IMG/VR virus record: IMGVR_UViG_3300028533_000484 | Location: 1-64,000 of that record | Origin: a virus | Lineage: Duplodnaviria > Caudoviricetes | DNA: 64,000 bases | Direction: 5' to 3' (one strand) | In this document: positions 6,772-31,510 of the stretch, piece after piece | How the letters are laid out: each line of letters begins with the position of its first letter | How positions within the stretch are numbered: the stretch's first letter is position 1 | Notes under the pieces: generated by a model | Databases searched by the model: none | Told to the model about the DNA's origin: nothing | What the model saw: only the letters and a program-made list of their open reading frames with translations | Made by a program: the position numbers and the translations under genes

Positions 6772-7311
6772 ATGAAACTTTCAGAAGAAATCAAAAAAGA
6801 AATAAAAAGAGAATCGGAAGAATACCTCAATGAAATAAAATCAGGTACAGATCAATATGGTGGTCTTACAAAAGAAGAAAGAGATGAATTGGGAGCCTTT
6901 TACACGCCACCAGACCTTTGCTGTCAAATGCTTGAGATGTATGATTGTACTTTGGAAGAATTTACAACAAAAACAATTTTAGATCCAACTTGCGGAAGTG
7001 GTAACTTGATAATGGCTGCTTTAATTGCAGGTATCTCTATAGATAAAAAATATCCTGAAAAAGTTTTTGGAAATGAATTAAGTTTAAAACCTCTTGAATT
7101 GTGCAGAAAACGTTTTACATATTATTGCGAAACTCATGACTTAAAAGAATATGACAAAGAGTTTTGGAGATGGCATCTGCATTTAGGAGATGCTTTGAAT
7201 AAAGATTGTATTGACAAAGAGTTGTTTGTAGAAAGCTATCGATACGACCCAATAAAGAATAAAGTAACTACAGATATCAAAAAGAAGTTCACTTTAAATA
7301 GAAGAAGATAA
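6772..7311 (+). CDS. N6-adenine DNA methyltransferase-like protein, SAM-binding half only
   Basis: GAFYTP, ILDPTCGSG, FGNEL and GDAL motifs; no (D/N/S)PP(Y/F) motif IV. Confidence 0.7.
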   Translation: MKLSEEIKKEIKRESEEYLNEIKSGTDQYGGLTKEERDELGAFYTPPDLCCQMLEMYDCTLEEFTTKTILDPTCGSGNLIMAALIAGISIDKKYPEKVFGNELSLKPLELCRKRFTYYCETHDLKEYDKEFWRWHLHLGDALNKDCIDKELFVESYRYDPIKNKVTTDIKKKFTLNRRR

Positions 7312-7325
7312 AGTTTGGAGAAAAA

Positions 7326-8087
7326 ATGTTAATTACGGAACAAAAACTAAAAAGACTCGGAAGATTATTTTACAGAGGATCCTTGTATCCTGATTGGGAC
7401 GAGAGTCTATCTCTTTTTAAGTGCTTCTATGTAACTTCTGAACCTTCATATGCTCTGTATTATGCTACAGATGAGGAGTCTCATAATGTAGGGTATGTAA
7501 CAGAGTTTTATCTAAACAAACCTTGCAATCTTTTTAATGCGAATTCTGATAGAGACTTCCAAATACTTAAAACACATTTGACAAAAACCGAAAGCTCCAT
7601 ATCCTTACAAGATTTAAAAACTTTGCGTACAGAAGATTGGCTTTTATTAGGTCCTAGTAAAAAGGAAGAATTGATAAAGTATCTAAAAGAACTTGGTTTT
7701 GACGGTTTTGTAAACTTTGAACGTGTAAAAGGTTTTTATCTAAGACGAGACTTCGGAAGGATAGGATCTTTTTCAGGTATTGGATTATTTAATTCTTCAA
7801 AATTCTTCAAACAAGGAAAACAATACAAAGGTTTTTCGGAAATATCCACAATTCCAAAAGTAAAAGCTGATATAGAAAATGAACTAAAACATATAAAGAT
7901 GTTTGCAGAAGATAAATTTGATCTTGTAACTAGTAAAAATGATTTGATTAACCTAACCAAACTATCAGGTGTAAACAAATATCTTGTTACTTTGGATGAT
8001 ATTAAGAGTATAGTAAATGATCTAAATCCAGAAGAATTGCGAGAAAGACTCAAATTAGAAAGCCATAGAAAGTCTTTTAGAACTTAA
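7326..8087 (+). CDS. ADP-ribosyltransferase-like protein, paralog 2
   Basis: FYRGS, FYVTSEPSYALYYA, NLFNA, EDW and LGFDGF; aligns by eye with 2566..3462. Confidence 0.55.
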   Translation: MLITEQKLKRLGRLFYRGSLYPDWDESLSLFKCFYVTSEPSYALYYATDEESHNVGYVTEFYLNKPCNLFNANSDRDFQILKTHLTKTESSISLQDLKTLRTEDWLLLGPSKKEELIKYLKELGFDGFVNFERVKGFYLRRDFGRIGSFSGIGLFNSSKFFKQGKQYKGFSEISTIPKVKADIENELKHIKMFAEDKFDLVTSKNDLINLTKLSGVNKYLVTLDDIKSIVNDLNPEELRERLKLESHRKSFRT

Positions 8088-8638
8088 TTTAAGATTGTGC
8101 TCGCAATAAAAACAAAACATTGAGGAAGTTCTTTAGTTAAAGTTTTCAAAAGTTTTTAGAAAAGCCTAGAAACTTAAAACCTATACTATAGGTTGTAAGA
8201 AGTTCAGTATGGAAGATCTTGAAAAACAGATTCGAAGTTTTATAGCTGCAACAATTTTAGTACATACAGCTTGTGTAAGTTATAGTTTGACGGAATCTGA
8301 AAATCTACAAAATTCAAAGTACGCGTTTGATCTTACAGATGTGCTTAAAGCAGCTGATAGAGCAACTAGAGCATTCTCTTACATAGATAGAAATAAAATC
8401 AAAGGTATTTTCAACGATACTGTAAAAGAAAATCTTTTGAGTTTAATAGATGCTGCAATTGTAAAAATCGGAGAAACGATTGAATTCTTGCACAAAGTGA
8501 AAACTGAAAATCAAAAAGAAGTTCTGAATAAAGTCTCAAGTTTAGTTGATGATTTGGAGCTGTTGAGAGAAACTACAAGGTAGAGTTGCAAAAAATTAGG
8601 CTTTTAGAATATAAACTTTTTAAGAGGAGATACAATTT

Positions 8639-8752
8639 ATGACAGATAAAGTAAAAGCAATTAAAGAAGCTATCGAGAATGGAACATACATTCTCGATAT
8701 AGAGACTACAGCAGAAAAAATCATCTTACTTGCTTCCTTGGATTTGTTTTAA
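8639..8752 (+). CDS. flgM: Minimal FlgM-like anti-sigma28 factor (37 aa)
   Basis: Translates as MTDKVKAIKEAIENGTYILDIETTAEKIILLASLDLF, matching the FlgM C-terminal pattern KV..IK.AI.nG.Y..D....A.K; GAGGAG RBS upstream; below the ORF-track cutoff. Confidence 0.8.
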   Translation: MTDKVKAIKEAIENGTYILDIETTAEKIILLASLDLF

Positions 8753-9135
8753 GAAATGATAGATTATAGCTTTATAGAATGCCATATTGCAAAAAGCAAT
8801 ATTGGTGAACATGATAGTGACAATCGATTTTTACTTGAAAGAATAGATAAACAAATAGACAGCTGGCAGGAGGAACATCCAGGATGTACGTTAGTTGGAG
8901 TTTGTTACGAATATCCACATACTTTTTGTGAAGGTTACTATCCAATAGTCTATGAAGATGAAAATGGAAATCGTTTCTGGACACATTGGTGTGTAGATAG
9001 ATACAAAGAATTTTGTGCAATAAATCGCTTTTAGTAAACTATTTTACCACTTTTGAAAGATAGATCCGAAAAAGAAGTAAATCCTTTTTTGAAAAACTAA
9101 ACTTTCAAAAAACTATACTTTTTCTATAAAAACAA

Positions 9136-9172
9136 TTTCAAAGGCAGTTCTCGAAAAAAATACTGCCCGAAA
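9136..9172 (+). promoter_or_regulatory. Leader RNA stem abutting the RBS; fifth copy of the tRNA-cluster stem motif
   Basis: TTTC-AAA-GGCAGT-TCTCG..AT-ACTGCC-C-GAAA followed directly by GGAG. Confidence 0.7.
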
Positions 9173-9182
9173 GGAGAAAAAA

Positions 9183-11246
9183 ATGAATGTAAATCTTATT
9201 CGTTTGTTTCTTTGCGAAACAAAAGGCAATCAAGTTAATTACGCAAAAGTAGCTGATCGTGCAATTCGTGCTGGTTATATTGTTGAACCAGAAGCAGCAA
9301 CAGTTGATGTAATGAATTTCTTGAATGAGCAAACTCTCAATCCAAATGCTACATTCTACAAACAATGGGAAGATATTCTCTCTCGTACTCGTCTTAAGTT
9401 GGCAATTGACCAGGTTCGTCATTATGCTTCAACTTACGGTTCTATTGAACCTGAAAAAGCTCTCGGTGCAGTTTTGGTAGCAGGAAAAGAAAGCCTCAAT
9501 GTTGAATACAACTGCGAAGGAAATGGATGGGTTCCAAACGACAATCCAATTATTATGCCTTTTAAACAGTTCAAAGTTATTAAAGCAGTAACTGAGGACG
9601 AAGTAAAAGATAAAATCTTAGATTTGTTCCGTTCAGGTTCAGCTTTGAAATCTGACACAATCGATGTTTGTGTTTCGTTCTTGAAAGAGAATGGATTTCT
9701 CAGAATGCTCAACACTGACGAAATCAAAAACAAAGAAGCCCAAGCAACAATTGCTTGTATGACAAAGAACTATCCAACAGATGAATTTGGTTTACTTCGT
9801 TGCATTGTTTATACTTTTACTGGAAAGACAGCTTTAATCAAAGACCGTTCTACAATTTACACAATTGAAGGAAAGAACGGTTTTAGTCCAGTAAATAAAT
9901 TCGACTTTGCAATTCTTTCAGATAAACAGTTGACAAACTTGTCTCGTATCTTCTATCGTTACAAGCCATTGTTCCTTGCAATGAAGAAGTACTACGATAA
10001 CTCAAAATACATCAACAAGTTGCGTAGACTTGCTGAAAAGAATCATACACCTTTAAAGAAAGGTTTCTGGGAAGATTGTTTTAATACTTCAGAACGCGAT
10101 ACAAGTCAACTTTTAAATGAAGCAAGATCTAAGATTTCTGAATTGAACAACTTTAGAAAAGTTCAATTGATGCAGTCAATCATGGAACGTTTGAATGGAC
10201 GTAACATGGACGGTAAGTTGTACGTAATTCGTAACGGAAAGATGTTCGTTCGCGAAGGATATCAACCAAGAACAAATCAAGCTTATTTGATGGACTTGTA
10301 CAATGTTGTTAAAACATCACTTGTTGAAAGTTTGAAAGCAAAAGCAACAACTTTTGCAGTACCAAAGGGCTTACATCTTACATGCCCAACATCTGAAAAG
10401 AACTTTATCGGAAACTATCCAATAGGTACTTCTGTAGACTTCTCAGATTCAGACAACATTGTAGGTATCTACTGGCGTAACGAATGGGGTACAAGAGACT
10501 TCGACCTTCACGTAGTTACTGAAAATGGTCGCCAATATGGTTGGAGTGAAGCCTTCAAAAGTCCAGACCAGGATATCATCTACTCAGGTGATATGACAAA
10601 TGCAGATCCAGAAGCAGTAGAACTGTTCTACTTCAAGAGAGATATGCCAGATGGTTTCGTAAACGTAAACAAGTTTAACGGTAACGACAGCTCAAAACTT
10701 CGTTTGTTTGTTGCAAAAGAGAATATTGTTAGAAAGCTTGCTTCAGGAAAACAAGATTCTTGGAGATACAACAATCGCAATGACAGAAAGTTAGAGAACT
10801 ATATGGTTGATCCAAACAACATTGTTGCAGAAGCAATGTTGGATTTCTCAAATTGTTCTCAGAAGACAATTGCTTATATTCAAGATAATCGTTTATACAT
10901 CATGGCTTTGCAGTCAGGTAATGGTAGAGTTTCTACTAGAACAAATCAAGAAATTATTCAGCAAGCAAACAAAGTAAAAGCTGATTCTTATATTGATTTG
11001 GTATCGATTCTCGAAGAAGCTGGTTTCAAGAAAGTTGCCGAAGGACATACAGATGCAGTTACTGAAGCAAAAGAAGAAGTAACAAATGTTGATGTAACTG
11101 GACTTACAGCTGAAGAAGCAATTGCAAAAGTAAAAGCTGAATATGAAAGATTAGATGTTGTAAATGCAAAGAAGGATGAAGTCGTTGAAGTCGGTCTTGA
11201 CTTGACAAATCCTACACCAGATGTATTATTAAAGTTGTTTAATTAA
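9183..11246 (+). CDS. 687-aa protein with C-terminal TerD-like domain; candidate RNA-binding protein
   Basis: GIYW...DFDLH...GW...YSGDMTNA...E pattern resembles TerD-like domains; strong codon bias suggests high expression. Confidence 0.5.
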   Translation: MNVNLIRLFLCETKGNQVNYAKVADRAIRAGYIVEPEAATVDVMNFLNEQTLNPNATFYKQWEDILSRTRLKLAIDQVRHYASTYGSIEPEKALGAVLVAGKESLNVEYNCEGNGWVPNDNPIIMPFKQFKVIKAVTEDEVKDKILDLFRSGSALKSDTIDVCVSFLKENGFLRMLNTDEIKNKEAQATIACMTKNYPTDEFGLLRCIVYTFTGKTALIKDRSTIYTIEGKNGFSPVNKFDFAILSDKQLTNLSRIFYRYKPLFLAMKKYYDNSKYINKLRRLAEKNHTPLKKGFWEDCFNTSERDTSQLLNEARSKISELNNFRKVQLMQSIMERLNGRNMDGKLYVIRNGKMFVREGYQPRTNQAYLMDLYNVVKTSLVESLKAKATTFAVPKGLHLTCPTSEKNFIGNYPIGTSVDFSDSDNIVGIYWRNEWGTRDFDLHVVTENGRQYGWSEAFKSPDQDIIYSGDMTNADPEAVELFYFKRDMPDGFVNVNKFNGNDSSKLRLFVAKENIVRKLASGKQDSWRYNNRNDRKLENYMVDPNNIVAEAMLDFSNCSQKTIAYIQDNRLYIMALQSGNGRVSTRTNQEIIQQANKVKADSYIDLVSILEEAGFKKVAEGHTDAVTEAKEEVTNVDVTGLTAEEAIAKVKAEYERLDVVNAKKDEVVEVGLDLTNPTPDVLLKLFN

Positions 11247-11387
11247 AAAATGTTTCTGCAGTAAACCTCCCAACTGCAGCATTGTTGGTGGCCCGCCAAC
11301 TAAAACAAAGGGCTTTCCCTTTGCAATGATTAATTTTTCCTGACCTATAATGTCTGTATAAATGTACAACAAGTGAGGTAGTTTGTT

Positions 11388-12119
11388 ATGATAGAAATTT
11401 TGGACTGGACTTGTAAAGATCCATTGAATTTGATTGGCTTTTGTGCCGGAGTTTGTTGGAATGCTCCTGTAAATGATGTAGAAAAAAACATCAATCGTGC
11501 AAAGAATTGCATTAAGTCTAATCATGGTAGAGCGTTGGAATATCCAGATGTATATGTTGTAATGGATGAGTACTCAGCCCGTGTTATTAGAGAGTTTTAT
11601 ACACATATTATTGGCACTACTCGTTTACAATCCTCTACCAGATATGTAGATGCAAAAGAAATGAATCCTGAAAAAGATTTTTATACACCAGTTAATTTCA
11701 CAGATACCCAAAAAAATATTTTATTAAAAGGTTATCAGGAAATTATGAAAACATATACCGATTTAGAAAACAACGGAGTAAGTAAAGAGGATGCTGCTAA
11801 TATTCTACCTTTAGGTATGCATACTAAAATTGTTGCAAAAATTAATTTAAGAGCTTTAGAGCACATGGCTCATAAGAGAAATTGTAATAGGGCTTACAAA
11901 GAGTTTAGAGCTTTAATGAAAGAGTTTGAATCTAAACTTGAACAAATCTCTGGAGAGTGGAAATGGATTTGTAAAAACATGTTAGTACCTGAATGCAAGA
12001 CTTTAGGTTACTGTCCTGAAGTAAAAGGTTGCGGTCTGGAGATTTCTAAGGAAGAAGCTTTGAAAGCCATTAAATATTGGAAAGAGAACAAAGCCAGAAT
12101 TGAGGATGATGGAAAATAG
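11388..12119 (+). CDS. thyX: FAD-dependent thymidylate synthase
   Basis: HGRALE, QSSTRYV, EDAANILP and NLRAL motifs. Confidence 0.9.
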   Translation: MIEILDWTCKDPLNLIGFCAGVCWNAPVNDVEKNINRAKNCIKSNHGRALEYPDVYVVMDEYSARVIREFYTHIIGTTRLQSSTRYVDAKEMNPEKDFYTPVNFTDTQKNILLKGYQEIMKTYTDLENNGVSKEDAANILPLGMHTKIVAKINLRALEHMAHKRNCNRAYKEFRALMKEFESKLEQISGEWKWICKNMLVPECKTLGYCPEVKGCGLEISKEEALKAIKYWKENKARIEDDGK

Positions 12120-29836: not shown

Positions 29837-31510
29837 AGAAAAGCGAGCCAGAAAAATGCTGAGTCTTTAGCTCAGCATATGAATGGCTCTTAAAAATATA
29901 TTAACAACAAGCCACTTAAATGTAAAGCTTTTTAAAAGTTCCTACTTTTTATCTATAAAAACGAAAGCTACAAGAATTGGTCGTTCTCATAGCCTTCTAA
30001 ACAAAACAAATTAAACAGGAATTTGTAATGCCTAATACAGTTAGTTATAGAAGTGCGAATCTAGCACTTAAGCTAAAATTAAATCCGTCTCAAGAACAAA
30101 AATCCTATCTCGACAAGACTTTCGGATGTGTTAGGTTCATCTACAACTACCTTTTAAATTCAAGGAATCAATTCTACGAAAATTCTATAGTTCCACTTCG
30201 AAAACAATTCAACTATTACGAAAAAGTCCAAAAACTCGAAGAGCTTTCTAAAAGTCTAAAAGAAAACAAAACAGAAATTAAAGACTTGAAAGCTGTGCTG
30301 GAAGCTATCAAGAAAATTACAAATCAAGAATACAAGAAGTACAAAGAGCCTAAAGTATCAGAATTGACTAAACAATTTCCATTTTTAAAAGAAGCTAACG
30401 GACAAGGTAAAGCTAACGCAGTTATGAATTTAAGGTCAGCTTATTCAAACTTTTTCAGTGGAAAAGCAGAAGCTCCTAAGTTTCATTCCAAGAAAAACAA
30501 GCAGAGCTTCAAAGACTCAATGATGAAGCAGGACTTCTTGGACTGGAACTCTAAAACTGTAGACTTACCTAAAATCGGGAAAGTCAAATTTTCTCATAGA
30601 AATTTGCCAAAATGGTACAAAGACAGAACAAAAGTTTGTAGCTACACCTGTAGTAGAGCACCTAACGGAAAATACTACATCACAATTCTTTTTGAAGTCA
30701 AATTAGACTTCAAAGAAAAAGTTAAAATCGAAGACCTAGACGAAAACCAAGTCATAGGATTGGATTTTGACTGTGATGATATGTACATAGATTCAAACGG
30801 AAAATCTGCATTAAAAGATTTTGGATTCAAGAAACAAAAGCAAGAACACTTAAAGCAACTTTCTCATTTACAAAGGCAATATGCTAGAAAAGTTAAAGGT
30901 TCTAAGAACAAAGAAAATCTTAGAGTCAAGATAGCTTCTTTGGAAGAGCACATTGCTAATGCAAGGATGGATTGGATAGAAAAAGAGTCTTTAAGACTGA
31001 CAAAGGAAAACCAACTTATCGGTCTGGAAGATTTGTCTATTAAAGGAATGATGAAATGGTCAAGAAACGCAAAGAACTATCAAGACATAGCTTGGTCTAC
31101 TTTCGTTTCTAAATTAAAATGGAAAGGCAAAAGATACGGATGCCACATTATCAAAGTTGACAAATTCTTTGCCTCTTCACAGACTTGTTCTTGTTGTGGT
31201 TTTAAGAATCCAGAAGTTAAGAAATTCCATTTGGAGAATTGGAAATGTCCGAGTTGCGGACAAGTCCACCAAAGAGACTTCAATGCTGCGAAGAATATCA
31301 GCAGCGAAGCTATAAGAGTACTCAGGGAAGCTGAGGAAAACCAGGAAAAATCCGAAAGGATGTCAAAAGACACTGGTAGCGTGTTGTCAACTTCATTGTT
31401 GGCTAATCTGGCACTCGCAGAGGCGAGCTAAGGGTAATGCACGAAACAATCTCCTAACACGCTTAGCTGTTAGGGGAATATGCTTGGTCTTTAGCCAAGC
31501 ATAGCTTCAA
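29837..31510 (+). mobile_element. IS200/IS605-family (IS1341-like) element, TnpB only
   Basis: Subterminal hairpins TGCTGAG-TCTTTAG-CTCAGCA (29857) and TGCTTGG-TCTTTAG-CCAAGCA (31481); TTTAT at left junction; TTCAA right end; no tnpA. Confidence 0.85.
30028..31431 (+). CDS. tnpB: TnpB RNA-guided endonuclease
   Basis: FGCVRFIYN, RuvC I IGLD, RuvC II LEDL, zinc finger CSCC..CPSC, RuvC III RDFNAAKNI. Confidence 0.93.
   Translation: MPNTVSYRSANLALKLKLNPSQEQKSYLDKTFGCVRFIYNYLLNSRNQFYENSIVPLRKQFNYYEKVQKLEELSKSLKENKTEIKDLKAVLEAIKKITNQEYKKYKEPKVSELTKQFPFLKEANGQGKANAVMNLRSAYSNFFSGKAEAPKFHSKKNKQSFKDSMMKQDFLDWNSKTVDLPKIGKVKFSHRNLPKWYKDRTKVCSYTCSRAPNGKYYITILFEVKLDFKEKVKIEDLDENQVIGLDFDCDDMYIDSNGKSALKDFGFKKQKQEHLKQLSHLQRQYARKVKGSKNKENLRVKIASLEEHIANARMDWIEKESLRLTKENQLIGLEDLSIKGMMKWSRNAKNYQDIAWSTFVSKLKWKGKRYGCHIIKVDKFFASSQTCSCCGFKNPEVKKFHLENWKCPSCGQVHQRDFNAAKNISSEAIRVLREAEENQEKSERMSKDTGSVLSTSLLANLALAEAS

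Follow-up and report, generated by a model that had tools for sequence, protein, structure and literature searches.

A 37-residue phage homologue of the FlgM C-terminus as a candidate non-exportable anti-sigma28 factor

The stretch of DNA analysed here (64 kb, hereafter the window) comes from an IMG/VR phage record of 140,446 bp with a GC content of about 32%. It contains a gene of 37 codons, which we call mini-FlgM, preceded by a Shine-Dalgarno sequence (Table 1). Both the short open reading frame and its GAGGAG ribosome-binding site had been pointed out in the original prediction, which was made from the letters alone, and both were found in place, with the quoted peptide lying inside the 37-aa frame. 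An in-frame TAA is present at 8621-8623, 15 nt 5' of the ATG; therefore, a longer N-terminus of mini-FlgM is ruled out. The gene is flanked on the same strand by two other small genes, of 124 and 92 aa, neither of which gave a match in family searches that included Pfam, PHROGs and NCBIfam. No terminator-like site was found on the + strand between 8100 and 9300, and in the simplest reading mini-FlgM and these two neighbours are probably one unit. The 92-aa gene does not adjoin mini-FlgM in other lineages. The possibility of a split gene, with the 124-aa frame as the lost N-terminus, was considered and rejected: this frame has no similarity to FlgM, and the upstream genes of the relatives differ.

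The TTGCAA and TATAAA boxes that had been proposed as a promoter are present as given, but as a promoter they are no better than chance, since the promoter scan of 8100-9300 did not call the site, the number of promoter-like sites in this AT-rich region (4) is close to that expected in shuffled sequences (4.4), and the upstream DNA of the relatives is unrelated, the site showing no conservation. Inside the gene (8671-8699), over the codons for IENGTYILDI, there is also an inverted repeat whose 11-bp arms match perfectly around a loop of 7 nt. We rejected it as a functional RNA element because it is weaker or absent in the relatives; codon choice probably accounts for it.

Table 1. Features of the mini-FlgM locus and of other loci mentioned in the text. 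Positions are those of the window unless a contig handle is given.
Feature	Position	Strand	Remarks
124-aa gene 5' of mini-FlgM	8209..8583	+	Same strand, 55-nt gap; no family match
TTGCAA (8586-8591), 18-nt spacer, TATAAA (8610-8615)	8586..8615	+	Promoter-like site of the original prediction; weak, unsupported
Shine-Dalgarno GAGGAG	8624..8629	+	9 nt 5' of the mini-FlgM ATG
mini-FlgM gene, 37 codons	8639..8752	+	Stop TAA 8750-8752; ORF list, Pfam FlgM match
Residues 3-14, matching later FlgM helix alpha1	8645..8680	+	Conserved face V5, I8, I12
Residues 15-20, inter-helix linker GTY..D	8681..8698	+	Aligned with the P. aeruginosa FlgM linker (six residues)
Residues 21-37, matching FlgM helix alpha2 (T24, A25, I28, I29), with leucine-rich tail (L30, L31, L34, F37)	8699..8749	+	
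92-aa gene 3' of mini-FlgM	8756..9034	+	ATG 3 nt past the mini-FlgM stop; no family match
687-aa protein	9183-11246	+	
GGDEF membrane protein, 388 aa	28198-29364	+	Pfam GGDEF 115 bits; GGEEF active-site motif
IS200/IS605-type TnpB	30028-31431	+	PHROG 506, E 1e-88
tRNA-like gene (ARAGORN)	43331-43404		Ambiguous two-base anticodon
Homing/HNH endonuclease, 567 aa	50986-52689	+	PHROG 3339, E 1.5e-88
GroEL-type chaperonin and both T4-type topoisomerase II subunits	G000: 81472-83115, 116498-118396, 119329-120696	-	
Intrinsic-terminator-like hairpins bracketing the 37-aa gene	L013: 5929-5946 and 6135-6158		Likewise in L014-L016
ORF with weak intein-splicing match, TnpB (OrfB_IS605), then ligase ORF	L029: 1047-4186		Ligase ORF 307 aa vs 374

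The predicted protein matched the Pfam family FlgM (PF04316) with 34.2 bits, above the gathering cut-off of 25 (E 3e-8), and the resemblance was also found when the 140-kb record was searched in six frames (E 9.4e-9). The match spans profile positions 27-54 of 55, that is, only the last half of the model. In agreement with this, NCBIfam TIGR03824 was matched partially (E 2.1e-6, positions 67-94 of 98), and the score of 28.4 bits is below the cut-off of 40.75 for the full-length equivalog. When the profile of the mini-FlgM family was compared with the PDB, one solved structure was retrieved, the "negative regulator of flagellin synthesis" 9wsf_B, over residues 77-103 (E 3.8e-6). The only other Pfam family matched was Permuted_GreAB-C, below threshold. 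By these profiles mini-FlgM is a homologue of the FlgM C-terminus. The identity that had been proposed thus held, including in the search against the FlgM family that had been suggested as a check; the term "mimic" did not, this being a true homologue. The absence of the export region, also anticipated, is borne out by the profile positions covered and by the nearby upstream stop codon.

In P. aeruginosa, residues 61-107 of FlgM suffice for a complex with sigma28 (PMC12784957). Helix alpha1 contacts sigma2 through its first part and sigma4 through V77, I80 and I84 in its later part; V96, A97, L100 and L101 of alpha2 contact sigma4 as well, and E104 and R107 make polar contacts to sigma2 and sigma3 (PMC12784957). 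The sigma4 mutation L204R weakens FlgM binding about 200-fold, and the sigma2 mutations R40E and R82E only 3-4-fold (PMC12784957). The numbering of PDB chain 9wsf_B is that of the paper plus 2 (PMC12784957). In the HMM alignment to 9wsf_B, the seven sigma4-contact positions are occupied in mini-FlgM by V5, I8, I12, T24, A25, I28 and I29, so that six of the seven hydrophobic contact residues are kept, the exception being V96, replaced by T24. On this mapping, mini-FlgM retains the energetically dominant sigma4 interface, whereas the part of FlgM that contacts sigma2 is missing, together with all that precedes it. The start of the protein falls at about FlgM residue 75 in the alignment to the P. 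aeruginosa protein, and its two helices are the counterpart of roughly the final 33 residues in bacterial FlgM.

The conservation among 77 distinct 37-aa relatives follows the same face, with strong conservation at all seven sigma4-contact positions. Every one of them has I8, while I12 occurs in 99% and V5 in 82%, and in the inter-helix linker G15, T16, Y17 and D20 are invariant while positions 18-19 are variable. In total, the invariant or nearly invariant residues are I8, K9, I12, G15, T16, Y17, D20, E22, T23, T24, A25, E26, K27, I28, L30, L31, L34 and F37, and variation is seen at positions 7, 10, 13, 14, 18, 32 and 35. The pattern is that of two amphipathic helices with a conserved, putative binding face. 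The leucine-rich tail (L30, L31, L34, F37) is particular to the mini-FlgM family.

A complex was then modelled in which B. subtilis SigD represented sigma28 and the partner was the mini-FlgM family alignment. The model reached an ipSAE of 0.72, against 0.02 for the best of three controls, a pass that speaks for likeness to known complexes and is not proof that this copy binds, because FlgM-sigma28 complexes have been solved and SigD is not the sigma factor of the host. Among 80 solved complexes, 58 attain the mark used, and among 110 mismatched pairs, 2 do. The three model runs share at least 67% of the contacts, with a partner pLDDT of at least 76. On SigD, confident contacts fall only within residues 188-253, in the C-terminal domain (sigma domain 4), and on mini-FlgM they involve residues 1-2, 4-5, 8-9, 12, 19-29 and 31-33, the contact faces being those of the same helical pair as in the crystal structure. 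Modelling of the kind that the original prediction had called for, there with FliA, placed the peptide on sigma4, as a matter of likeness and not of binding, and the model predicts that mini-FlgM would bind a sigma28.

The best-supported reading, which we consider somewhat more probable than not, is that mini-FlgM is a phage-made, non-exportable anti-sigma28. The peptide would be made during infection from its strong ribosome-binding site and would bind domain 4 of the host flagellar sigma factor (sigma28: FliA, SigD). Occupancy of sigma4 would block both recognition of the -35 element and docking on core RNA polymerase, and in consequence the late flagellar, chemotaxis and other sigma28-dependent genes (autolysin in Firmicutes) would be kept off, regardless of hook-basal body status. 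The N-terminus of FlgM is required for export through the flagellum. As mini-FlgM has no such N-terminal export region, the block would not be relievable by secretion. From this we infer inhibition in vivo, retention in the cell and a benefit for the phage, which may consist in resources saved and core polymerase freed, in less autolysin expression in Firmicutes-type hosts, or in fewer flagella as receptor. In addition, the window encodes a GGDEF membrane protein (Table 1), and since c-di-GMP generally suppresses flagellar motility, this diguanylate cyclase may be a second, independent motility brake, on circumstantial grounds.

With the bacterial FlgM proteins (Salmonella; P. aeruginosa, 9WSF; Aquifex, 1SC5) mini-FlgM shares the homologous C-terminal two-helix motif, with the sigma4-contact hydrophobics kept, and the model puts the peptide on the same domain. 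The differences are also clear: mini-FlgM has 37 aa, whereas bacterial FlgM has about 85-110; it is without the disordered N-terminal export region and the sigma2-contacting start of alpha1; and it carries the leucine-rich tail in place of the charged C-terminal contacts. Since this alpha1 start is absent and E104 and R107 are replaced by that tail, affinity and specificity may differ. Furthermore, bacterial FlgM is found in a flagellar operon, and mini-FlgM among phage genes for replication and nucleotide metabolism; the genes flgA, flgN and flgK of a flagellar cluster were not found beside it.

In a first alternative, the FlgM-derived hairpin has been retargeted and clamps sigma4 of a housekeeping, another alternative or a phage sigma factor, serving host shut-off or phage timing in the manner of AsiA. 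The sigma4 fold and its hydrophobic groove are common to all sigma70-family factors. The predicted contacts are on sigma4 only, the sigma2 and sigma3 contacts behind the multi-domain grip of FlgM have been lost, and the protein has a conserved, family-specific tail. A phage sigma could also lie elsewhere, as the record is about 35% complete, and the phage is distantly T4-like (topoisomerase II 33-34% identity; rIIB in relatives). However, the conserved residues are those that contact sigma28 in the crystal structure, the Pfam assignment to FlgM is above cut-off, and profile searches found no sigma70 region 2, 3 or 4 domain in the 140-kb record. We consider retargeting rather unlikely.

T4 AsiA, which is likewise small and helical, redirects host transcription by binding to sigma domain 4, its target being the housekeeping sigma70. 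The likeness to mini-FlgM, a small helical phage protein on sigma domain 4, is one of predicted placement. The two have no sequence relationship, mini-FlgM coming from the host's anti-sigma family, and outside FlgM and the sub-threshold Pfam hit mentioned above no family, PHROGs included, was matched that would place it with AsiA. Unlike AsiA, mini-FlgM most likely targets the flagellar sigma.

In a second alternative, sigma28 would be appropriated instead of silenced: with sigma4 capped, the holoenzyme would ignore host -35 elements and be redirected to phage promoters, or sigma28 would be shielded from proteolysis. A predicted interface on sigma4 only, which would leave sigma2 free, is compatible with this. 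T4 AsiA together with MotA offers a precedent for such sigma4-capping, promoter-redirecting logic, and FlgM itself is known to shield FliA from proteolysis (Barembruch and Hengge 2007, listed among the references of PMC9266447). Against it, the window has about as many sigma28-type promoter matches as chance would give (8 vs 6.7 expected), we know of no partner activator for an appropriation of this type, and in the systems that have been studied the binding of FlgM to sigma4 dissociates the holoenzyme. This possibility seems very doubtful to us. The broader proposition of a widespread AsiA-like clamp of gut and rumen jumbo phages, built on FlgM and acting on sigma4 only, whether on a retargeted sigma or by appropriation of sigma28, we hold to be unlikely; if true, phages would have acquired a sigma-remodelling factor independently, from a host protein.

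Relatives of mini-FlgM were abundant in metagenomes. A word-indexed search of 5.8 billion proteins gave 16 clusters with 76-100% identity, every one of 37 aa, and a profile search gave 103 proteins, nearly all of 37 aa. The contigs that carry them number in the hundreds and reach 319 kb; the length is fixed across about 100 metagenomic clusters, and the PF04316 match is precomputed for all relatives. Judging from the sample names, the metagenomes are of rumen and gut. With phmmer against 1.8 billion representatives, only other 37-aa proteins were retrieved, as well as one frameshifted form of 48 aa (P0022 resembles such a frameshifted copy); three long, repetitive proteins among the hits seem spurious and were discarded. 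Searches for longer or fused forms found none, though with a query this short the result carries little weight. In three variants of 40-49 aa (P0089, P0093, P0116), three extra residues are inserted in the inter-helix turn (DWNKAVETTAEK), and the tails differ. ESM Atlas holds clusters of FlgM-domain proteins of 33, 37 and 47 aa, and minimal FlgMs may be a wider phage theme.

Among the relatives, pairwise dN/dS is 0.03-0.14, with synonymous sites saturated. In those examined, the Shine-Dalgarno sequence is AGGAGG, AGGAGA or GAGGAG at a constant distance, the other upstream DNA being unrelated; in L016 it is AGGGGA. Mini-FlgM is a real gene under purifying selection. That it could be without function, as a captured flgM in decay or as a reading frame arisen by chance, is extremely improbable: the gene is very short, belongs to no PHROG family and has no BLAST relative in cultured phages, but the low dN/dS, the fixed length over so many clusters and contigs, the ribosome-binding site retained in unrelated contexts and the invariant hydrophobic faces all speak against it.

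On phage contigs, the gene was found in at least four neighbourhoods: that of the window; 3' of a DUF2786 gene (L007, L008); 3' of ClpP, a BRCT gene and two small genes (L002, L011, L012); and 3' of an NAD-dependent ligase (L013-L016, L026-L033). Across loci, its phage neighbours are ClpP, NAD ligase, BRCT, DUF2786, dCMP deaminase and rIIB. In the ligase lineage, terminator-like hairpins flank the gene (3 found vs 0.0 expected; Table 1), which suggests a stand-alone, moron-like cassette with an unrecognised promoter between the hairpins. In one contig of this lineage (L029) the ligase gene 5' of mini-FlgM appears to have been invaded (Table 1). The 687-aa protein of unknown function encoded downstream in the window accompanies mini-FlgM loosely, with genes matched by size only near some relatives (703 aa, just 3', in L007/L008; 684 aa, 4 kb 5', in L002/L011). 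Distant relatives of the 687-aa protein, with 25-29% identity, occur in gut phage Phass-1 and in two Synechococcus phages, S-CRM01 and S-CBWM1.

Concerning the origin of the gene, no full-length FlgM close enough to mark a donor was found. The short FlgMs of Campylobacterota, such as the 62-aa proteins of Caminibacter/Nautiliaceae (P0101), share the motif IENGTYKVDIE.TAK with mini-FlgM and have, like it, a Thr-Ala pair at the position of V96-A97 of P. aeruginosa. In contrast to mini-FlgM, they keep about 30 N-terminal residues and reside in bacterial genomes. No donor can be named, because the similarity to FlgM of Thermotogota is about equal. In Fervidobacterium (L005), a full-length FlgM frame of about 93 aa is followed directly by a bacterial frame of 156 aa instead of by phage genes.

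The search for relatives in GenBank phages gave no match by megablast of 7000-12000, by tblastn of the 37-aa protein against 50,697 records (E up to 10), or by tblastn of a full-length bacterial FlgM. Pattern scans of IMG/VR gave no confirmed relatives, and no PHROG family matched. A full-text literature search returned no report of a phage-encoded FlgM. The gene had been described as unannotated, which is correct for the list of reading frames on which the original prediction was based; public gene callers do find it, and JGI labels relatives as "anti-sigma28 factor". Thus annotation of the relatives exists and it is their biology that is undescribed.

The nearest published concept is TldR, a nuclease-dead TnpB-type protein of temperate phages, guided by RNA to the fliC promoter (PMC13418256). 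The likeness lies in a phage-borne device that lowers flagellin expression, which for mini-FlgM is a proposal; TldR acts at the fliC promoter, whereas mini-FlgM would titrate the sigma factor and affect the whole sigma28 regulon. If an anti-sigma28 role is true, the phage would own a copy of a host flagellar checkpoint reduced to its binding core and freed from the export that releases sigma28, and motility shutdown may be a common strategy of jumbo phages in gut and rumen, because about 100 clusters are found on large contigs. Moreover, if the binding is true, a natural 37-residue sigma28 binder would be a minimal tool for studying and engineering sigma/anti-sigma switches. To our knowledge, the known phage anti-sigmas target housekeeping or stress sigmas, and none is related to host regulators.

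As for the host, the gene had been taken to imply a flagellated one. What stands is that a host with a sigma28-type sigma factor is implied; flagella themselves are not. The CheckV completeness of the record is about 35%, and therefore the full phage genome would be of several hundred kb. A GGAG, GAGG or AGGA core lies at -18 to -5 of 54% of the ORFs of the record, whose starts are crude calls, compared with 6.6% of random positions. Heavy use of Shine-Dalgarno sequences is atypical of Bacteroidota and fits Firmicutes-like or other Shine-Dalgarno-using bacteria. Because of this excess, the usage argues against a Bacteroidota host and fits the latter groups. For TnpB, GGDEF and topoisomerase II, the best matches have an identity of only 28-42% and come from mixed taxa, and they point to no host. 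A scan of genome contigs for relatives returned only generic FlgMs, with 54% identity, and the 140-kb record contains no flagellin or CsrA genes.

Other genes of this phage are listed in Table 1. The best plasmid and phage matches of the IS200/IS605-type TnpB are about 35% identical and mostly from Firmicutes, and the large subunit of topoisomerase II is only 33-34% identical to those of T4-like Vibrio phages and of Salicola phage SCTP-2. A homing/HNH endonuclease and a GroEL-type chaperonin are also present. Finally, the window carries eight tRNA genes, and the tRNA-like gene with the ambiguous anticodon lies inside this cluster.
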